Source: a virus
Reading direction: 5' to 3' (one strand)
DNA length: 34,043 nt
UHGV virus genome: UHGV-0081034
Position 1 is the first letter of the stretch. Each line of letters begins with the position of its first letter. Shown here one piece after another: positions 16,244 through 30,832 of the stretch. The notes under the pieces are model-generated. The model had not been told where the DNA came from. It saw nothing but the letters and a program-made list of their open reading frames with translations, and did no database searches. The position numbers were made by a program, and so were the translations under genes.

Positions 16244-16249
16244 TAAGAT

Positions 16250-16272
16250 CCCCGGAGTGGTAAGCTCCGGGG
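16250..16272 (+). terminator. Stem-loop after the endolysin gene (CCCCGGAG-tggtaag-CTCCGGGG)
   Basis: Perfect 8-bp GC-rich stem 7 nt after the stop codon. No clean T-run, so it may be a weak terminator or stability element. Confidence 0.35.
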
Positions 16273-16291
16273 TGAATATTGTATCATCTTT

Positions 16292-16325
16292 TTCGTGTTG
16301 CATTTTGATGCATTTCGTGTTGCAT
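16292..16325. repeat. Two copies of the 12-mer TTCGTGTTGCAT (16292-16303, 16314-16325); candidate integrase arm-type binding sites (P arm)
   Basis: Exact 12-nt repeats. The same 12-mer occurs twice more in tandem at 16520-16543, on the other side of the attP core. Confidence 0.4.
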
Positions 16326-16383
16326 AGGATTCTAAAATAACTGAAATATTTATAATATGCTAGAATGATTCTAAATAATAAAA

Positions 16384-16421
16384 ATGCGGGAAACCCTTGA
16401 TTTATAAGGGATATCCCGCAT
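16384..16421 (-). terminator. Rho-independent terminator on the minus strand, immediately downstream of the tRNA-derived attP core
   Basis: Minus-strand sense AATGCGGGATATCCCTT-ataaatc-AAGGGTTTCCCGCA followed by TTTT. Looks like a tRNA gene terminator carried in attP. Confidence 0.5.
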
Positions 16422-16451
16422 TCGTTGTAAATTCGCACTTTCATTAAAAAG

Positions 16452-16474
16452 TGGACCTGGCGGGAATCGAACCC
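16452..16474 (-). other. attP core candidate: 3' portion of a tRNA gene (T-arm plus acceptor 3' strand, GGGTTCGATTCCCGCCAGGTCCA on the minus strand)
   Basis: GGTTCGATTCC T-loop consensus followed by a 7-nt acceptor strand and discriminator A. The upstream tRNA body is absent, since pairing partners for the T-stem and acceptor are missing. Adjacent to the integrase 3' end. Confidence 0.55.
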
Positions 16475-16504
16475 AAAAGATTTTTGCCAAAAGTGGCGGT
16501 TTTA

Positions 16505-17617
16505 TCACGCTTTCTTCGGTTCGTGTTGCATTTCGTGTTGCATGATTTGAGTGAAATGCTCGTTTATCTTGTCAGTAAACTTCTTTTCCTCGGACTCAAT
16601 GGTGCCACGGTACACCTTTTTGAGCACTTTGTCAGACTTCCACCCACCACGTTTCATGATGTACTGATCCGGAATATTAAGCGCATGCATGATGGATGCA
16701 GTGTAGTGACGGAGATCATGATATCGAAACTCTGGAACACCGGCAGAGCGTAGCACCTTCTTGAAGTTCTTGGACAAGTCTTCCGGGTGCATTTTAACAA
16801 GTGGACCACTTTCAATATCATCAAATTTTCTGATTACAAATTCTGGCATAATCACATGTCTGCAACTACTCTGTGTCTTAGGCCCTTTGGTCACGATTCC
16901 TTTTCTACCACGTACACGTGTCTCTCTGATCCGAATAGAGTTTCCGGTGATATCTTCCTTTGTCAGACCGAACACTTCTCCTCTTCGAAGACTTCCAAAC
17001 GCTGCAAGGAGTACGGCCTTTTCCATCTCAGTTCCTTCAATGTACTTGATCAGTTTCTCGATGTCCTCATCAGATGGAACATATCCGTCAAAATCTTTTG
17101 GAGCTGGTAACGTGACTCTAAATATTGTTCCAGGAGAATACATCCCTATGACAGCCGTAAATAGTCCATAAGCGTTCTTTACTGTCTTAGGTGATAACTT
17201 TATTGAGATTGCATTTACCCACGCTTGTACGTCCTCTTGAGACAGCTTACGTAGGCTTATGTTCTCGATTTGCTTTATCTGATTCCTTACGATTGTTTCA
17301 TATCCACGCAATGTGGTTTCAGACAGCACATTCTCTTTTAATTTAATGTAATTAGTGAACGCTTCTTTTACAGTCCAGTTCTCAGGACGTTTCTTCCGGT
17401 CCTTTTCTGCGAGAAACTGTGCAGCCTGTGCTTCAGCTGACTGTTTTCCTCGTTTACCTGGAAGATCACTGGTGAATGATTCATAGATTCTTTTCTGCTT
17501 CTGCTTTTTTGTTTTCGGATCAATGACTGGTTTTCCATCCTTATCCACCATATTTTCATAGTGTGAGAATACCAGACATCTCCATGATCCGGAAGGTAAC
17601 TTCTTAGCTGTTGCCAT
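16505..17617 (-). CDS. int: Tyrosine site-specific integrase
   Basis: 370 aa. C-terminal catalytic region with the HDLRHYTAS / R…H.LRH…Y arrangement. N-terminal arm-binding-type domain. Adjacent to attP. Confidence 0.9.
   Translation of the reverse strand: MATAKKLPSGSWRCLVFSHYENMVDKDGKPVIDPKTKKQKQKRIYESFTSDLPGKRGKQSAEAQAAQFLAEKDRKKRPENWTVKEAFTNYIKLKENVLSETTLRGYETIVRNQIKQIENISLRKLSQEDVQAWVNAISIKLSPKTVKNAYGLFTAVIGMYSPGTIFRVTLPAPKDFDGYVPSDEDIEKLIKYIEGTEMEKAVLLAAFGSLRRGEVFGLTKEDITGNSIRIRETRVRGRKGIVTKGPKTQSSCRHVIMPEFVIRKFDDIESGPLVKMHPEDLSKNFKKVLRSAGVPEFRYHDLRHYTASIMHALNIPDQYIMKRGGWKSDKVLKKVYRGTIESEEKKFTDKINEHFTQIMQHEMQHEPKKA
16520..16543. repeat. Tandem TTCGTGTTGCAT x2 inside the integrase 3' end (encoding MQHEMQHE); candidate P' arm-type sites
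   Basis: Exact copies of the 12-mer seen at 16292-16325. Symmetric placement around the tRNA-like core. Confidence 0.4.
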
Positions 17618-17815
17618 ACAATCATCTCCTTTTTATAAAAAATGGTATAAAAATAACAGCCTAGCAACAGAACAAGAGTTCTGATTGATTGACTGCTCCG
17701 AAGATGATACAATATTCATTGGATTTTGGAGTATCTCTTCGGAGTTACTAAAAGAAGCATATTGACGTATGTTTCTTCCAGTTGACCGTTCCTGTTGACG
17801 CAGGAGCGGTTATTT

Positions 17816-18361
17816 TTATTTCAGCAAATCTGCAATACAGATCTTAAGGTCATCATAGATTCCAACAGGAATCTCATCATCAAAAGAATATTGATTGAAG
17901 TCTTCTATATCACCAAAGAGGTAAGTCTGAACAGTCTCTTTCATTGGATTCACGATCCAGTATTCACGAACACCGGCTGTGCGGTATTTGAATAGCTTGG
18001 TAAGGTAATCCATACGCTGACTGCTTGGTGATACGATTTCGATAATGAAATCTGGGGCACCATTGCATCCATGGTCATTAATCCGGTTTGGATCACAGAT
18101 TACGGAGACATCTGGTTCTACATAGTTATGATCATCCTGATTCAGAAAAACAGCAAATGGAGCAGGCAGAACTTCGCAAGGACCTCCATGGGATTTAATA
18201 TAATCCCGGATTGTTGCGGAAAGTTCCATTACAAGTTTCTGATGAAGATAACTCGGTGGAGCCATGTCATAGATCTGACCGTCAATCAGTTCTGCACGCT
18301 GCCCATCAGGAAGAGCGTAGATGTCTTTGATTGTGTAGTTGTTTGATTTTGGTAATGGCAT
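17816..18361 (-). CDS. Uma2-family (DUF820) PD-(D/E)xK putative endonuclease
   Basis: ATG 18361 follows aagga. ~181 aa with the PDFIIEIVSPSS … GVREYWIVNP hallmark of Uma2 proteins. The track start at 18397 lacks an RBS. Confidence 0.65.
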   Translation of the reverse strand: MPLPKSNNYTIKDIYALPDGQRAELIDGQIYDMAPPSYLHQKLVMELSATIRDYIKSHGGPCEVLPAPFAVFLNQDDHNYVEPDVSVICDPNRINDHGCNGAPDFIIEIVSPSSQRMDYLTKLFKYRTAGVREYWIVNPMKETVQTYLFGDIEDFNQYSFDDEIPVGIYDDLKICIADLLK

Positions 18362-18409
18362 GTGTTCACATCCTTTTGTAATATTATAAAGAAACAATTC
18401 ATAAATAGC

Positions 18410-19282
18410 CTATCCAATTAAGTTGTTTTGTGATGCAGTATCAATTTCCATTGGCGGAATTTCAAGATTGGAAAAAAGCAATTCTTTTCCTTGGACATGT
18501 GTATTAACAGAATAATCCAAATAAATATTTTGGCGCTTGCTTTTTTGATAGAGCTTTCGAATTTCTGGATGATCATCGTAGCTCACCAACCAAGGATATG
18601 ATTTATTTTTAATAAATTTGGCTAATCTTATATGCATACTTTTATCATAAGAATAGCGATACAAAGTAGGCCCCTTTTCATAATAAGGAGGATCGACATA
18701 TACAAATGTGTTATAATTTCTTTTATATTTTGTTTTTTCGTTTAAAAAATCAAGAGCATCCATATTGTATATTTCAATTCTGTCGGAGAAACAAGATAAC
18801 TCACGGATACTTTTAATAATTTTTTCCTTGTTAAAGCGACAATCAATTTTGTATTGTGATTCCTGTTTCATTCCTCCGAGTGGATTCGCATTTAATATAC
18901 CAGAAAAACTTGTTCTATTTAGGTACAATCCGGCAAATCCTATTTCTAGCGGAGATTTATTTGTAAGGTATGAAGAATTTCGGTATTGCGAATAATGCAT
19001 CCAATTATCTAACGTAATGTCAACGTTTTCAATTAGAGTTATTAAATTGTTGGTATCATTCATTACTGATAACCAGAAATAATAAATTAAAGGATCTAAT
19101 TCGTTAATTATTGCTTTTGAAATCGTTTTTGATTCAAGTAATGCTAAGGAAACTGCTGCGCTACCAGCATAAGGCTCATATAAGGTGCAATTAGTAAGAT
19201 GTTCTGTTTCAAGTAGTTTTTTTATGTAGGGAACTAATTTTGATTTTGCACCTGGATAACGCAAAGGATTTTTAATTGGCAT
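18410..19282 (-). CDS. dam: DNA adenine (N6) methyltransferase, Dam / D12 class
   Basis: 290 aa. N-terminal LRYPGAKSKL and YEPYAGSAAV (AdoMet) motifs and a DPPY catalytic motif (YVDPPYY). Very AT-rich gene. Confidence 0.8.
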   Translation of the reverse strand: MPIKNPLRYPGAKSKLVPYIKKLLETEHLTNCTLYEPYAGSAAVSLALLESKTISKAIINELDPLIYYFWLSVMNDTNNLITLIENVDITLDNWMHYSQYRNSSYLTNKSPLEIGFAGLYLNRTSFSGILNANPLGGMKQESQYKIDCRFNKEKIIKSIRELSCFSDRIEIYNMDALDFLNEKTKYKRNYNTFVYVDPPYYEKGPTLYRYSYDKSMHIRLAKFIKNKSYPWLVSYDDHPEIRKLYQKSKRQNIYLDYSVNTHVQGKELLFSNLEIPPMEIDTASQNNLIG

Positions 19283-19334
19283 AAAATCACCTCCTAAATT
19301 TTATTATACATAAAAATAATATATTTGGCCAGAA

Positions 19335-20906
19335 TTATTCGAGTATATCCAAAATAGGAATATCATTTTGTAACGCTAATTGATTGAATATTTCAACATA
19401 ATTGTTCAAAAACAGTTGATATTCGGAAGGGCGAGTGAGTTTCCAATAATTATATAACTTGGAATTACCTCTTCCCCAGTATTTTTCTTGTTCTTTGAAC
19501 CATTTTTTGTATTGCTGAGGGTCGGCGTTACGATCAATTAGTGTAGGATAATTTGCAAAACATTTTTTCTTATCATATTCGCCTAACTCAGTATCCCAAA
19601 AAGAATCTGTTTCGTCCAAAGAATAAAGAAACCTGTAAAACATTTCTTCAGGACAAGTAGTGCCAGGAAGAAACATTACATATTTTCCACGATATTGTTT
19701 AATCTTTTTGCAAATTGATTGCTTATTTTTATCACCATCAAGAATCAAGATACTTTCACAAACGGGTTTTAGTTTTACTCGTAATAATTCAAGGTATGAT
19801 TCAGCACCAATAGAACATGGGCTAAAAACAATATTTTTTCTAAAACCACCATTAAGGAGTGACTTAACAAATGATTGCGCTACATCATCTTCGGTAAAAA
19901 TTGTAATTTTAGGTATGACATCTGGAGTACCTTTAACTGAACCAGATAATTCTAAAATTACATCGTCAATAGAAGTAGTAGGCTTATTTTTTACCAAATT
20001 TCCTTCTTTCTTTAAATATACAAGTTTAGTTTCTTTTGGATTGTATTTATCAAAAAAAGTAGCTTTTAACACAGAAGGAGAGTGTGTTGTAAAAATAAAT
20101 TGTATTTTATAATCACCGGCATATTTATAAAGACGCTTAATGAGCCTCATTTGTGACAAAGGATGAAAAGTTGATTCAATTTCATCAATCAGCAGAATTC
20201 CACCTTTATAATCATTTGGATATTTTTGCATTAGGCGTCTAAAGGATAATACAGAAATTAGAATTTTCCCTAAGTTGTCTTGACCAGCAGAAATAGATAG
20301 CGCATCTTGATCATTTGGGTGAATAGATGCAGTATATTTTATTCCAGAATGTATAGTATCAATTTCTATATTATCTGATAGATCTGACATAATGTCTTTA
20401 TACTCCAATGTTAAAAATTTCTTTTCTTCAGGAGTGAGCTGATTTAAGTATTCAAAAGAGTCTTCTTCGCCAATAGGAGAAACTCTTTTTAAGCTTAAAT
20501 AATAAACAGGAACTTGTGGGTATCCGGTTCCAGCACCTTTACCTTCAGTAGACCAAAAGCGAGGAATTGGATCTGATTTATCACGATATATACTATGTGC
20601 TTCAAAATAATCATTTTTGTATATATTAGGATATAAATTTAAACGCCATTTATGCGTTCCAGGAATATCTTTATCTGAAAGTTTAAATTTTTCTGCAAAT
20701 TGTGAACGATATTTGTAATTATCAATGGAACTTTCGCCATACATGGGATTATTTTTATTTATAGAAAAGGTTTGTCCTAAAATACCTAGAGTGGTAGTTT
20801 TCATAGTTCCATTATGACCAACTATTGCGGTTAGTTTTGTACCTAAATCAAAATCTACATTTTCAAGAGCTCTAAACTTATCTATGTGTACGCTTTTAAT
20901 TATCAT
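19335..20906 (-). CDS. OLD-family ATPase-nuclease (N-terminal ABC-type ATPase plus C-terminal Toprim-like domain); class 1 OLD or fused PARIS-like defence protein
   Basis: 523 aa. Walker A-like GHNGTMKTT, Walker B LLIDEIESTFHP, H-loop TTHSP. C-terminal IFTEDD … ILILDGDKN resembles Toprim E / DxD. Very AT-rich, with its own promoter region at 20907-21025. Confidence 0.6.
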   Translation of the reverse strand: MIIKSVHIDKFRALENVDFDLGTKLTAIVGHNGTMKTTTLGILGQTFSINKNNPMYGESSIDNYKYRSQFAEKFKLSDKDIPGTHKWRLNLYPNIYKNDYFEAHSIYRDKSDPIPRFWSTEGKGAGTGYPQVPVYYLSLKRVSPIGEEDSFEYLNQLTPEEKKFLTLEYKDIMSDLSDNIEIDTIHSGIKYTASIHPNDQDALSISAGQDNLGKILISVLSFRRLMQKYPNDYKGGILLIDEIESTFHPLSQMRLIKRLYKYAGDYKIQFIFTTHSPSVLKATFFDKYNPKETKLVYLKKEGNLVKNKPTTSIDDVILELSGSVKGTPDVIPKITIFTEDDVAQSFVKSLLNGGFRKNIVFSPCSIGAESYLELLRVKLKPVCESILILDGDKNKQSICKKIKQYRGKYVMFLPGTTCPEEMFYRFLYSLDETDSFWDTELGEYDKKKCFANYPTLIDRNADPQQYKKWFKEQEKYWGRGNSKLYNYWKLTRPSEYQLFLNNYVEIFNQLALQNDIPILDILE

Positions 20907-21025
20907 GTGACAACCTCTTATCTTATTATGTGTAATATATATATCCTAAGTAGATGAATTTTTATCATATAAATAGGATATATAATGTCTGTTATATGTG
21001 ATTTCTGCAATAAATTGTAGATGAT

Positions 21026-21472
21026 TTATTTATCAATATTTTTAAATTTCATTATCTTGTTATCATATCCAGCAATTCTTGCAATTTGTGATTTATTTAT
21101 ACCAGGATTCTCATAGATCAGTTCATCTGGTATCAGCAGTTCTGCCGCAAAAGTATTTGCTTCAATCTCCATCTTGGAAGTCAGCAGAAGAGTCTTATTT
21201 CTAATGAAATAACAATTTTCCTTCCGGTGCATAATTGAATGAGCCAGTTCGTGAGCCATGACAAGGGTTCTTTCATGTTCCTCTAAATCTTCATTAAGGA
21301 AGATGCACTTATGATTCTTGAGAAACATATAGCATCCAGCGTTTGATCCAAGCGGACCGGTCTGGACTTCTACATTCAGATATTCTGCAAGCCTAAAAGG
21401 GTTTCTGGTTTCATATTTTTTGACGTAATAAGCAACTAAACGCTTAACATCATGTGCTTTCAATTGCAACAC
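21026..21472 (-). CDS. immA: ImmA/IrrE-family metallopeptidase (anti-repressor protease)
   Basis: 148 aa with an HEXXH motif (AHELAHSIMH). Immediately downstream of, and stop-start adjacent to, an XRE repressor, as in ImmR/ImmA pairs. Confidence 0.8.
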   Translation of the reverse strand: MLQLKAHDVKRLVAYYVKKYETRNPFRLAEYLNVEVQTGPLGSNAGCYMFLKNHKCIFLNEDLEEHERTLVMAHELAHSIMHRKENCYFIRNKTLLLTSKMEIEANTFAAELLIPDELIYENPGINKSQIARIAGYDNKIMKFKNIDK

Positions 21473-21892
21473 CTACTTTTTATTCTTGTTAGGATTGTAT
21501 TTTTCCTTATTGATAGGTTTCAACCGGCGCATCATTAATTCAATTTGTCCCAGAAGCAGTTCTGTGTCTTCTTCCGGAATAGGTTCACCATCGTAGGAGA
21601 GCGGACCATCAGCACCATTCATTAATTTACCACGGAGATTCTCTAAATCCTTTGCAATGTCTCTTTCATCTTTTGGAGTGATTGCATAAGGATCCTCTTT
21701 CTTTTCTTCACCAGTGAAGTATTCGGTTGGAACTCCGAAGTAATCAGCTATTTTCTGCAATTTTTCCATCTTAGGAGTATATTTCCCTTGTTTCCAACTT
21801 GTGAGAGTAGCAGTTGTTACTCCTGTTTCTTTTGATACTCGATAAGCGGTTACATTATTTTTCTTTAGTAATTCTTCAAATTTTTCATACAT
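21473..21892 (-). CDS. immR: XRE-family HTH repressor (ImmR / CI-like)
   Basis: 139 aa. N-terminal HTH_XRE (…VSKETGVTTATLTSWKQGKYTPKMEKLQKIADYFGV…). Divergent from the Cro-like gene. Confidence 0.8.
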   Translation of the reverse strand: MYEKFEELLKKNNVTAYRVSKETGVTTATLTSWKQGKYTPKMEKLQKIADYFGVPTEYFTGEEKKEDPYAITPKDERDIAKDLENLRGKLMNGADGPLSYDGEPIPEEDTELLLGQIELMMRRLKPINKEKYNPNKNKK

Positions 21893-21913: not shown

Positions 21914-22056
21914 CTTAGAAATCTATGCTAATAAATATTGACAAGCTTAGAAAACTATGCTAATATACAAACATAGCTTAGATAACTAAGTTAAAACAAT
22001 ATAAGGTTTCTTAGATAACTTAGATGGTACTTAGATTATATAAGAAACCTTAGATA
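21914..22056. repeat. Operator array: at least six copies of CTTAGA(T/A)A, including the palindrome CTTAGATAACTAAG (21977-21990)
   Basis: Copies at 21914, 21946, 21977, 22010, 22019, 22030 and 22049. They overlap both predicted promoters. Confidence 0.45.
21938..21966 (+). promoter_or_regulatory. Rightward sigma-70-type promoter for the Cro-like gene: TTGACA-17-TAATAT
   Basis: -35 at 21938-21943, -10 at 21961-21966, 17-nt spacer. ~110-nt leader to GTG 22083. Confidence 0.55.
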
Positions 22057-22063
22057 GTGTCAA
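22035..22063 (-). promoter_or_regulatory. Leftward consensus promoter TTGACA-17-TATAAT (minus strand), facing the rightward promoter; candidate repressor promoter
   Basis: Minus-strand -35 at 22063-22058 and -10 at 22040-22035. Transcripts would converge with those from the rightward promoter over ~55 bp. Confidence 0.5.
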
Positions 22064-28419: not shown

Positions 28420-28724
28420 AAAGAAGTACAGACACACGCTGGAGTCCTGCAGAGATCCAGCAGAATCAAAAAGAACATTATGCTGCTATGGCAGAGCATC
28501 CGCCTGACCGGAAGGCAAGCGAGAAGTTTCATCGGCCGGCATACCAAGCAGGCAATCTGATCAAAGCACAGGGGCAGCAGTTGTGGCATGGAGATGTGGC
28601 GGAGTATTTGGCGAGAAAGTACAAGATAGGAGATGATGCCAATGGAGAAGAGACTGGAAGAGAACAATGTGAAGAACGAGAACAACCGGAAAAAAGAGTA
28701 TCTGAGAGGATACAGAGCCAATAG
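28416..28724 (+). CDS. Hypothetical protein (GTG start; overlaps the next gene by ~90 nt)
   Basis: 102-aa ORF from the track. Coding status uncertain because of the large overlap. Confidence 0.3.
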   Translation: MKRSTDTRWSPAEIQQNQKEHYAAMAEHPPDRKASEKFHRPAYQAGNLIKAQGQQLWHGDVAEYLARKYKIGDDANGEETGREQCEEREQPEKRVSERIQSQ

Positions 28725-29091
28725 AAGACGAATCAGCAGAATTGACGATGAGGTAAGAGAACTTAGGGAACTTGCAGAATCTACGAAAGCAACAGACTAT
28801 TCGGGGATGCCACATGGTAGTGGAAATCAGAAAGATCTGTCAGATGAATTGGCAAGAATTGATTCACTGGAAAAGAGATTACAGAAAGAAAAAAGCAAAT
28901 GCATCGAATCATATATATCCATTGAAAATCAGATTAAGACAGTGAAGAATGAAGATGAGAACGATGTACTGTTTTACAGATACATTAAGGGATTGCGTTT
29001 TTGGGAAATCGCTGAAAAGATGGATTGTACAGAACAGTGGGTTCATAAGTTGCATGGGAGAGCATTAGGACGTTTAAAAATACCAAAATAA
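28633..29091 (+). CDS. Sigma-70 region-4-like HTH protein; candidate late-gene transcriptional activator (ArpU/RinA-like)
   Basis: 152 aa. C-terminal LFYRYIKGLRFWEIAEKMDCTEQWVHKLHGRALGRL resembles sigma r4. Last regulatory gene before the packaging module. Confidence 0.55.
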   Translation: MMPMEKRLEENNVKNENNRKKEYLRGYRANRRRISRIDDEVRELRELAESTKATDYSGMPHGSGNQKDLSDELARIDSLEKRLQKEKSKCIESYISIENQIKTVKNEDENDVLFYRYIKGLRFWEIAEKMDCTEQWVHKLHGRALGRLKIPK

Positions 29092-29290
29092 TTTATTATA
29101 GTTTATTGAAGTTTAGTATAAATGTGTGAGAGAATTACAATGAGCCGAGGACGGAAAACCGAAGGCTCGTCCTCTCTTTGTATAAAACCTAAGAAGCACC
29201 TGCACAGGGATGTGTGGGTGTTTTTCTGTTGTATAATGTCGAAGTTTGGGATATTATGGAAATAGGGTTTATATAGACGGAGGAATGATT

Positions 29291-30226
29291 ATGGCAAAGA
29301 AAAAAGAAAATGTTGTGAGAAGAAGTTTATATTATTATGACTTATCTTGGAAGTATTTCGATGAAAAGTCTGGAGAATATGTTAGTGTAAAAAGAAAAGA
29401 AGAAAAGTTTGAGAATTTTCTAAAAAAATTCTGTTTCAAAGAAAAGAAAGTAAACGTTAAATACATATCCACGACAGAGAATGAAGATAATTTATTTATT
29501 ATTACAGATAAAATAGAAAATGATAAAATATATTTTAGGATAGTTTTATGTAAAACTAATGCACTTCCTTTAATAGAGCAGGACGGTGAACTAGAAGAAT
29601 TAGAAAAATATATTAATAAAAAGCAAAATATTGCAGAAATAACACATTGTGTATTTTTTAAAGACACTAATATCGTAGGAAGTGAATTTAACTTTTCAGG
29701 AGCAAGAATATCAGCATTGAACTGGTATATTCCAAAAATTCTGAACATATGTGGAGATAATCAAAAATTATATCAAATTAAATTTATGCCCAAAATTGAT
29801 AATGATTCCTATAAGAAATTGGCTAAGAATGAAACAATAACATTATTCGATATGACATTTAAGCCAGATTCAGAGGCATATAAAAACGTTTTAGCACATA
29901 ATAGTTTGTTTAGTGGAGCTGTGAAAAATGTCCCGGATGCAGAAATAATAGAAATAACATTAAAGAGAAGAAAAAATAAGACAAACAGTTATACGGGGAT
30001 GAATGACGTTTTATCATCAGATGATTTGAAAGAATTGTTGACTAAGTATAGAGATGATATTGGGAAATTATATATAAGTCAGGGTTCGTATTGTGATGCA
30101 ATTGATTTATTATCAGATAAACTAGTTAGCAAGGTAGATATAGTTCGGACTAAAAAAAGAACAATAGATTCAAAAGATGTATATAAAAAGATAGAAGAAT
30201 TCTATAAAGAAGAGGTAAAGCCTTAA
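29291..30226 (+). CDS. Hypothetical 311-aa soluble protein in a very AT-rich moron (candidate defence/abortive-infection component)
   Basis: ATG 29291 follows ggagg. Lys/Asn/Ile-rich with 16 ATA codons. No recognisable catalytic motif by eye. Sharp drop in GC relative to flanking phage genes. Confidence 0.5.
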   Translation: MAKKKENVVRRSLYYYDLSWKYFDEKSGEYVSVKRKEEKFENFLKKFCFKEKKVNVKYISTTENEDNLFIITDKIENDKIYFRIVLCKTNALPLIEQDGELEELEKYINKKQNIAEITHCVFFKDTNIVGSEFNFSGARISALNWYIPKILNICGDNQKLYQIKFMPKIDNDSYKKLAKNETITLFDMTFKPDSEAYKNVLAHNSLFSGAVKNVPDAEIIEITLKRRKNKTNSYTGMNDVLSSDDLKELLTKYRDDIGKLYISQGSYCDAIDLLSDKLVSKVDIVRTKKRTIDSKDVYKKIEEFYKEEVKP

Positions 30227-30247
30227 TATTGGGAGAAAATCAATAGA

Positions 30248-30712
30248 ATGGAAAAAACATGGGCGAACAAAATTGATAAAGTAATCATTATCTTTTTACC
30301 GATTTTGATTGGAATCGCAGGAAATATTATATGTAATAAGTGCGGTAAACAACTATTAATAGTTGACAAGGAAAAAGGAATCGATTTATTGAAGACGATT
30401 TTAGATATATGGGGAATATTGCTCGGTTTTATTTTTACGGCAACATCAATCTTATTAACTATTGGAGAAAATCAGTATGTGAAATTGCTAAAAGATACAA
30501 ATCATTTTCCTAATATATTATTTTCATATGTAATGGCAGGAACGTATTTGTTAATGGCAATTACTTTCGGAATAGTATTGCTATTTGTGGACATATGGGG
30601 AGAATGTATTTTTAATATTTTTTTATGCTTAAACATAATAATTATTGTATCTATGGCAATGTGTGTAAAGTTTCTTTTTAATATAATTTTAAACATGGAT
30701 AGAAAGAGATGA
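30248..30712 (+). CDS. Small integral membrane protein (4 predicted TM helices) paired with the preceding gene
   Basis: 154 aa. Hydrophobic stretches at ~10-30, 50-72, 93-115 and 122-145. Same AT-rich composition. Followed by a strong terminator. Confidence 0.55.
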   Translation: MEKTWANKIDKVIIIFLPILIGIAGNIICNKCGKQLLIVDKEKGIDLLKTILDIWGILLGFIFTATSILLTIGENQYVKLLKDTNHFPNILFSYVMAGTYLLMAITFGIVLLFVDIWGECIFNIFLCLNIIIIVSMAMCVKFLFNIILNMDRKR

Positions 30713-30760: not shown

Positions 30761-30832
30761 GGACCATTAGTTCAGTGGTAGAACATTCGCCTCATAAGCG
30801 AAATGTCGTAGGTTCGATTCCTGCATGGTCCA
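30761..30832 (+). tRNA. tRNA with anticodon CAT (elongator-type; Met, or more likely Ile2/lysidine)
   Basis: 72-nt cloverleaf: acceptor GGACCAT/ATGGTCC, D-arm GTTC-AGTGGTA-GAAC, anticodon arm TTCGC-CTCATAA-GCGAA, variable loop ATGTC, T-arm GTAGG-TTCGATT-CCTGC, discriminator A. 1:72 is G:C and there is no GGG/CCC anticodon stem, so it is not an initiator. C4:G69 and C5:G68 match E. coli-type tRNA-Ile2 identity pairs. Confidence 0.8.

Follow-up and report, generated by a model that had tools for sequence, protein, structure and literature searches.

PD-lambda-5 is a validated, broad-range, prophage-borne anti-phage system of two genes, which encode a ParB/HEPN protein (PD-lambda-5_A) and a methyltransferase (PD-lambda-5_B). 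Vassallo et al. (2022) interpret it as a compacted combination of restriction-modification (RM) and abortive infection ('RM+Abi'); the ECOR7 proteins are RCQ13837.1 and RCQ13838.1. Another group of defence proteins, the OLD-type ABC-ATPase/Toprim proteins, forms the core of Gabija, PARIS, retron and P2 Old immunity; research into how these proteins are silenced and into the cues that they sense is ongoing. OLD classes 1–4 are defined by gene context, and none of them is methylase-linked. HEC-04 is a single-gene ABC ATPase-TOPRIM defence in which the Walker A lysine and an E/D/D triad are essential (Payne et al. 2024, preprint). IbfA, encoded on a Salmonella/E. coli plasmid, defends as a single gene as well, and both act without a methylase. 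P2 Old and AriB have Toprim nucleases that act as abortive tRNases, respond to phage cues and are blind to methylation; the cue for PARIS is the anti-restriction protein Ocr. The Aravind group sees OLD-ABC and TOPRIM modules as suicidal effectors that are attached as a backup to BREX and RM-like systems. Here we analyse a two-gene cassette that encodes a 523-aa ABC ATPase-Toprim protein and a 290-aa DNA methyltransferase. It lies in the UHGV virus genome UHGV-0081034, the whole 34,043 nt of which are referred to as the window, within an accessory island that an initial annotation had placed at positions 17,816–21,025.

The pair is probably an undescribed variant of PD-lambda-5. As in PD-lambda-5, the module is compact, prophage-borne and made of two genes, and its methylase is a full-length PD-Lambda-5_B protein. 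The two differ in that the defining ParB/HEPN component is absent from the window, where a six-frame translation contained no homologue of PD-lambda-5_A, and in that an ABC ATPase/Toprim protein is present instead; PADLOC would make no PD-lambda-5 call there. Neither PADLOC-DB v2 nor NCBIfam release 20 holds a model for the ATPase family, and a published description of the ATPase-methylase pair was not found in the literature searched, within which subscription journals were largely out of reach.

The ATPase-Toprim gene and the methylase gene are a functional pair with an obligate, phylum-spanning and operon-like linkage. A scan that covered 185,579 species, each represented by a single genome, gave 354 places encoding relatives of the ATPase. 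We compiled 83 loci, namely the best 80 of these 354 and three phage loci, and accepted as partner a same-clade methylase (E≤1e-45). Such a methylase lay beside the ATPase homologue in 76 of the 83 loci, and the exceptions were mostly contig ends. The linked loci span Bacillota, Bacteroidota, Pseudomonadota, Verrucomicrobia, Planctomycetes and archaea. Where the two genes were directly adjacent (n=49), 47 pairs were co-oriented; they occurred in either gene order and were mostly separated by −8 to +30 nt. Because of this constant neighbour, the 523-aa protein is not a 'solo OLD' of the P2 Old kind, as the initial annotation had it. Three loci have the ATPase and no methylase. Two of them (L074 and L079) carry the canonical glycine in Walker A, and the ATPase gene of L079 is directly upstream of a type I HsdR gene; the third (L060) retains glutamine at this position and has an unannotated 598-aa neighbour.

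Many two-gene loci sit amid ordinary housekeeping genes. Their larger neighbours were considered as hidden variants of PD-lambda-5_A and rejected, since Pfam showed mostly unrelated families (PLP enzyme, MatE, histidine kinase, ABC-2 permease); a few were other defence genes (NgoFVII-like enzyme, type ISP enzyme, AAA_21 protein). The pair was also found at prophage ends beside the integrase gene in Streptococcus, Citrobacter, C. butyricum and E. coli JJ1886. By tblastn against phage records, the ATPase gene adjoined a same-clade methylase gene in Vibrio phage ValB1MD-2, Citrobacter phage phiNP and Streptococcus phages, and the order in Streptococcus phage phiGBSVK-D (repressor, small open reading frame [ORF], ATPase, methyltransferase, integrase) is that of the window. 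The pair is present in at least 85 of the 5,426 complete E. coli genomes, among them that of the ST131 strain JJ1886, in which the genes are annotated merely as 'AAA family ATPase' and 'DNA adenine methylase'. The JJ1886 pair is located at the extreme end of a prophage with yfdP/Q/R, between the integrase gene and the host gene glaH.

Pfam matches of the 523-aa protein were limited to ABC-type ATPase families (AAA_15, 8e-19; AAA_21, 2e-12). PADLOC gave ~130 generic ABC-ATPase matches near 1e-19, and the top ones were partial matches (~1e-19) to AriA, HEC-04 and the retron I-B ATPase-Toprim, the latter two reaching into residues 330–427. A model specific for the protein was not present in the Pfam, PADLOC or NCBIfam libraries scanned. 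In an alignment of 65 homologues, K36, the signature S206-A-G-Q-D210, the Walker B residues D241-E242 and the H-loop H275 were invariant. In the Toprim motifs E339-D340 and D390-G-D392, the residues E339, D340 and D390 were likewise invariant, and G391 and D392 were conserved at ≥90 %. An AlphaFold (AF2) model of high confidence (predicted local distance difference test score: 90.3) was compared at full length with the PDB by Foldseek. The best matches were OLD nucleases, i.e. the Thermus OLD 6p74 (E=8e-15), GajA and the retron Eco8 effector, followed by PtuA and SMC heads. The C-terminal half and the middle insert matched no Toprim, DUF4435 or OLD profile in Pfam, PADLOC or NCBIfam. The sole profile match of the C-terminal half was HEC-04 (E=0.0015), and searching the PDB sequences with a profile of the C-terminal domain yielded spurious syntaxin matches only. 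The Toprim assignment therefore rests on fold and motifs. Judged in this way, the protein is an ABC ATPase joined to an OLD-type Toprim domain, in agreement with the initial annotation. It has what defines the OLD family in the broad sense, namely an ABC ATPase with Walker A lysine, signature, Walker B and H-loop and a predicted C-terminal Toprim with the acidic E...DxD residues. It had at first been assumed to be PD-lambda-5_A from the 1e-94 match of the neighbouring methylase; this was rejected, as no A model matches it and A is a ParB/HEPN protein.

The family is no rarity: among 1.84 billion representatives, the C-terminal domain was found in 648 clusters (50 % identity) at E≤1e-10, and it always formed the C-terminus in full-length proteins of 500–570 aa. 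K36, D241/E242, H275, E339/D340 and D390/D392 were all intact in each untruncated locus of the 83. The idea, raised in the initial annotation, that the genes flanking the methylase have decayed in homologues was rejected on this ground.

Among described single-gene systems, HEC-04, the second-best PADLOC match, and IbfA share with the 523-aa protein the ~520-aa fusion, an equal domain order and alignable Walker B, H-loop and E and DGD Toprim motifs. BLASTP against a HEC-04-like plasmid protein (PADLOC HEC-04, 1e-32) aligned Walker B, the H-loop, TED/VED and LDGD/LDGD at 21 % identity. The differences are the low identity (~21 %), the partial match to the HEC-04 hidden Markov model (68 bits, profile positions 231–404 of 494) and the canonical GxxGxGKS P-loop of HEC-04 and IbfA; HEC-04 is defined by a full-length profile match and a stand-alone gene, neither of which is found here. 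Weak matches to the ATPase of the window occur on around 200 conjugative plasmids of E. coli and Salmonella. One such relative, on E. coli plasmid pEC316_3 (L087 2465-4956), is a 521-aa HEC-04-like ATPase-Toprim protein whose gene is convergent with that of a 289-aa HEPN-like protein (PDC-S64/DUF3644), with no methylase.

Comparison with the OLD classes confirmed an OLD-like ATPase-Toprim protein, and none of the three assignments considered at the outset (class 1, a fused PARIS or Gabija GajA) fitted. Class 1 OLD proteins (P2 Old; Thermus scotoductus OLD 6p74) provide the best full-length fold match, with an ABC ATPase at the N-terminus and a Toprim at the C-terminus, and prophage-encoded exclusion as a precedent. 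They are by definition encoded by a solitary gene, which is not the case here; identity is 16 %, the P-loop deviates in the present protein, and the PADLOC Old model was not among the top matches. Unlike Gabija (class 2), the island contains no GajB helicase gene, and the neighbours encode a D12 methylase and an IrrE-like protease. For PARIS (class 4), the AriA match covers residues 216–279 only, and there was no AriB/DUF4435 match in PADLOC or Pfam. The present protein is a fusion, and its partner is a methylase. PrrC-EcoprrI, an example of 'RM+Abi', resembles the cassette in that an ABC-ATPase-nuclease is genetically tied to a DNA-modification system. PrrC carries a HEPN anticodon nuclease and lies inside a complete type I RM system, whereas the cassette comprises a Toprim protein and only a small alpha-class methylase.

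The Walker A motif of the 523-aa protein reads G30-H-N-G-T-M35-K36-T37, and the initial annotation had rightly pointed to methionine in place of the second glycine. Of 115 close homologues, 86 have M at this position, 23 have L, five have Q and one has S; none has G. Across the 83 loci it was mostly Q, with M in the clade of the window, and the canonical G was confined to the most distant members, which include two of the three loci without methylase. The HEC-04-like relative has the canonical P-loop GMNGSGKS. As Gln, Met or Leu occurs family-wide and the other catalytic residues are intact, the alignments indicate that the substitution is a conserved family trait and not a sign of decay.

The methylase matched Pfam MethyltransfD12 (2e-20), and its best match by far was PADLOC PD-Lambda-5_B (PDLC04018; E=1.3e-94; residues 3–280 against profile positions 4–278 of 291). 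Its S-adenosylmethionine-binding motif EP[FY]AG and catalytic motif DPPY were invariant (72 of 72 family members). Of the earlier description as a D12-class Dam methylase, the class stands. The Dam/GATC label is unsupported because the protein scores 82.6 with NCBIfam Dam (TIGR00571), below the cut-off of 114.85, and because the only solved homologue is 7M6B, M.CbeI (E=4e-21), an alpha-class N4-cytosine methylase according to its depositors. The Dam structures (E. coli, T4, DpnM) did not match at E<1. The title of the 7M6B entry says 'adenine-specific', in conflict with the depositors' description of M.CbeI; for this reason, the annotation of the methylase clade as 'DNA adenine methylase' may be unreliable. 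The motif DPPY was rejected as a discriminator between N6-adenine and N4-cytosine methylation, since M.CbeI has DPPYY too. In the window, GATC was not depleted (168 sites observed vs 118 expected), and neither its count nor those of other palindromes offered a usable clue to the methylase target. An indirect hint comes from E. coli PD-lambda-5, which had to be cloned in an mrr-deleted host, implying an active non-Dam modification.

The initial annotation had correctly placed three co-oriented minus-strand ORFs between the integrase gene and the genes of an IrrE-like protease and a cI-like repressor (Table 1); the latter two lie upstream of the cassette in the same orientation. All three ORFs had been described as far below the GC content of the phage. 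This applies to the ATPase (0.308; at third codon positions 0.19) and the methylase (0.309; 0.24), and not to the third gene, encoding a Uma2 protein (0.412), which matches the remaining window (0.418). The low-GC island is hence 18410-20906 and not 17816-21025. The ATPase and methylase genes are a foreign, horizontally acquired low-GC moron in the lysogeny region, as had been proposed. Megablast of the island against phage records gave no match.

In approximately 30 of the 83 loci, a PD-lambda-5_A gene was found between or beside the ATPase and methylase genes (e.g. L021, 2.5e-195; L031, 1.4e-93). The clade of the window (41–99 % identity, ten loci) was without PD-lambda-5_A throughout, so the two-gene form is a stable lineage rather than the remnant of a recent breakdown. 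Marinobacter and Pseudomonas phages have the methylase clade together with PD-lambda-5_A and no ATPase. A HerA and NurA-like gene pair is embedded between the ATPase and methylase genes in four loci, and Vibrio phage 10N.286.54.E5_PE002 has a HerA module with the methylase and no ATPase; HerA/NurA-like genes were not found in the window. The HerA and NurA-like pair has the appearance of a third alternative effector serving this methylase clade. Since the clade pairs with PD-lambda-5_A, with ATPase-Toprim or with HerA/NurA, the methylase is the element that stays constant, the effectors being swapped or stacked.

Overall, distances of ATPase and methylase were correlated (Mantel r=0.66, p=0.001). 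Co-diversification was compared in 25 three-gene loci (e.g. L014, L017, L021 and L031), in which the correlation with the methylase was r=0.93 for PD-lambda-5_A and r=0.65 for the ATPase. Mean distances in these loci were 0.72 for PD-lambda-5_A, 0.52 for the methylase and 0.49 for the ATPase. The close correlation despite the high divergence of PD-lambda-5_A suggests that PD-lambda-5_A and the methylase co-evolve in a common specificity or interface. In Vibrio phage ValB1MD-2 (gp41/gp42; L001 6467-8019), PD-lambda-5_A is seemingly split into adjacent ORFs of 265 and 252 aa, which could be due to a frameshift or a sequencing error or could represent a genuine two-part form.

We hypothesize that the cassette is a two-gene methylation-coupled anti-phage module, a PD-lambda-5 variant in which an OLD/HEC-04-like ATPase-Toprim protein replaces the ParB/HEPN effector, and we consider the chances of this reading to be about even. 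In the lysogen, the ATPase-Toprim protein and the methylase would be expressed together with the repressor. The methylase would mark the resident DNA, chromosome and prophage alike, and the ATPase-Toprim nuclease would be restrained by the methyl mark or by the methylase itself. Entry of unmodified foreign DNA would release the nuclease, and the superinfecting phage would be blocked. We infer the defence function, the methylation dependence and the nuclease substrate, which may be DNA, like that of GajA, or tRNA, like those of P2 Old and AriB. The methylation-coupled module is favoured because the linkage is obligate, spans phyla and is specific to one methylase clade, because the methylase is retained in lineages without PD-lambda-5_A, and because there is an operon structure and a validated precedent with the same methylase and a different nuclease. 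The occurrence of one methylase clade with ParB/HEPN alone or with HerA and NurA-like proteins fits a common self-marking enzyme with swappable effectors. Several findings weigh against this reading. The ATPase-Toprim protein may not need methylation, as HEC-04 and IbfA defend without a methylase. P2 Old and AriB, which have been studied best among OLD-type Toprim nucleases, ignore methylation. In the three loci mentioned above, the ATPase is without the methylase, and in one of them it adjoins HsdR. The ATPase looks like a modular add-on and not like a cognate restriction partner, given r=0.65 vs 0.93 for PD-lambda-5_A.

It is rather unlikely, if still a serious competitor, that the ATPase-Toprim protein is a second-line suicide effector attached to a methylase-based system, comparable to PARIS or PrrC. 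Such an RM-guarding abortive sentinel would sense the methylase or phage anti-restriction proteins and cut tRNA, the probable target, or other nucleic acid non-specifically, and methylation of the target would be irrelevant. P2 Old and AriB as phage-triggered tRNases, the response of PARIS to Ocr, the description of OLD-ABC/TOPRIM proteins as backup effectors on BREX and RM-like systems and the reading of PD-lambda-5 as 'RM+Abi' are all in line with this explanation. So are the ~30 loci with the ATPase beside complete PD-lambda-5 A and B, the closer correlation of the methylase with PD-lambda-5_A than with the ATPase, and the methylase-less homologue next to HsdR. Yet the window and ~40 other loci offer no restriction partner to guard, the methylase being alone, and the two-gene form is stable over a clade of 41–99 % identity. 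Moreover, the association is with one methylase clade and not with RM systems generally.

We regard it as quite improbable that two independent functions travel together, i.e. a stand-alone HEC-04/IbfA-like abortive gene and an orphan methylase with an anti-restriction or epigenetic role. That HEC-04 and IbfA work singly, that phage orphan methylases are common, that the methylase clade occurs without the ATPase and that a candidate promoter precedes the methylase gene would agree with independence. Against it stands that 76 of the 83 loci, spread over phyla, have the two genes side by side, in one order or the other and with reading frames that overlap or nearly touch, and that this also holds for non-phage chromosomal contexts among housekeeping genes. 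The Mantel correlation and the large coincidence of the family-specific P-loop change with methylase linkage argue against it as well. The initial annotation had suggested, as one of two options, a methylation-linked nuclease pair formed by the methylase and Uma2. A methylation-linked pair is probably present, in the form of ATPase-Toprim and methylase. A three-gene unit, in which methylase and Uma2 act as an RM-like pair and the OLD-like protein as a solo exclusion gene, is very improbable: the Uma2 gene is indeed co-oriented and 48 nt downstream with no terminator before it, and its product matches the defence candidate PDC-S03, but its GC content (0.412) is unlike that of the other two genes, it accompanies the pair in only two of 83 loci, one being the same prophage, and the conserved neighbour of the methylase is the ATPase.

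A bolder extension of the methylation-coupled module, which we put forward as tentative and doubtful, is a widespread new OLD class, a 'methylase-coupled OLD', with a re-engineered P-loop and a Toprim nuclease that serves as the endonuclease of a minimal two-gene RM system. Its methylase would be a universal self-marker for ParB/HEPN, ATPase-Toprim and HerA-NurA effectors. If true, this would add a new type to the RM enzymes. The tie to a methylase may offer a simple silencing answer for one OLD branch, self DNA being marked. PD-lambda-5 would grow into a family of modules in which one methylase is combined with three or more effectors, either as alternatives or stacked. The current annotations of the two genes are generic ('AAA family ATPase', 'DNA adenine methylase'), and the pair would escape defence finders. 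The conserved non-glycine P-loop is a handle on how ATP binding tunes an OLD nuclease, and the pair is directly testable because E. coli carries it.

Table 1. Features of the window and of related loci, with positions, strand and basis of assignment
Feature	Position	Strand	Basis or remark
Tyrosine integrase, bounds accessory region	16505..17617	-	Pfam Phage_integrase and SAM-like domains
13-bp stem-loop directly after Uma2 stop	17783..17812	.	Terminator-like scan and sequence
Uma2 PD-(D/E)xK putative nuclease	17816..18361 (ORF call to 18397)	-	Pfam Uma2 (PF05685) 2e-31
290-aa alpha-class (D12) DNA amino-methyltransferase, PD-lambda-5_B family, putative modification component	18410..19282	-	Pfam, PADLOC
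Promoter-like TGGCCA-17-TATAAT, 10/12	19303..19331	-	52-nt gap before methylase gene; consensus match only
523-aa ABC ATPase fused to OLD-type Toprim, putative effector	19335..20906	-	ORF, Pfam, PADLOC, fold match
C-terminal region of 523-aa protein, residues 285–523: Toprim (E339-D340, D390-G-D392) and helical tail	19338..20054	-	
Deviant Walker A, G30-H-N-G-T-M35-K36-T37	20796..20819	-	Alignment
IrrE/ImmA-like metalloprotease	21026-21472	-	Pfam Peptidase_M78 6e-19
cI-like HTH repressor	21473-21892	-	Pfam HTH_3 6.5e-11
Perfect sigma-70 promoter match TTGACA-17-TATAAT, 12/12	22035..22063	-	Consensus scan; upstream of repressor
HerA/NurA-like loci	L018 7596-11302; L049; L069 2573-5988; L078; L084 4381-7801		
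E. coli JJ1886 pair (P423_RS15135/RS15140)	L089 5048-7760 = NC_022648.1 2973353-2976065		Directly after prophage integrase

The perfect promoter match upstream of the repressor could drive the whole unit from cI to Uma2 in the lysogen, and the scan showed no terminator-like sites between these genes. The stem-loop after Uma2 is likely the end of the transcription unit; its T-run is on the plus strand, and function on the minus strand is inferred. Independent expression of the methylase from the promoter-like site in front of its gene is possible. Strong ribosome-binding sites were present before the ATPase ATG (AAGAGG) and before the methylase gene (AGGAGG).

The Pfam match and the close spacing of the Uma2 gene agree with the initial annotation, which had reported a Uma2 PD-(D/E)xK gene ~48 nt from the methylase gene. 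The likelier start codon is the ATG at 18361: it comes with an AAGGA ribosome-binding site, and the gap that results is 48 nt. The product contains a full-length Uma2 domain and matched PADLOC PDC-S03 (1e-48; residues 13–192 against profile positions 1–186 of 188), a single-gene member of the PDC systems, which are untested defence candidates. Its phage-average GC content and its rarity beside the pair mark Uma2 as a separate passenger and not as the nuclease partner of the methylase. Co-transcription of the Uma2 gene with the pair is possible.

The whole window reads as a complete-looking temperate phage genome of ~34 kb. Its genes are ordered from structural genes to holin and lysin, integrase, lysogeny module, replication, late regulator and terminase. 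As the lysin gene is directly followed by the integrase gene, the genome is circularly permuted. The 261-nt gap between these genes (16244-16504) is the likely attP region. Locus L004, on a contig of an uncultured Mediterraneibacter metagenome-assembled genome from the human gut, encodes an ATPase with 99 % identity in the same gene order including Uma2, and the phage host is therefore probably a member of the Lachnospiraceae (Mediterraneibacter-like).

A further low-GC patch (29246-30712; 0.27–0.32) contains two plus-strand ORFs of 326 aa and 154 aa, the latter membrane-spanning-looking, with no match in Pfam or PADLOC. It has a late-regulator-like gene (Sigma70_r4/DUF1492, 28633-29091) on one side and the terminase genes on the other and may be a second moron. 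Just past this patch, the phage encodes a tRNA-Met (CAT; 30761-30832), which is of interest as OLD/PARIS Toprim nucleases cut tRNAs and phage tRNAs can rescue infection.

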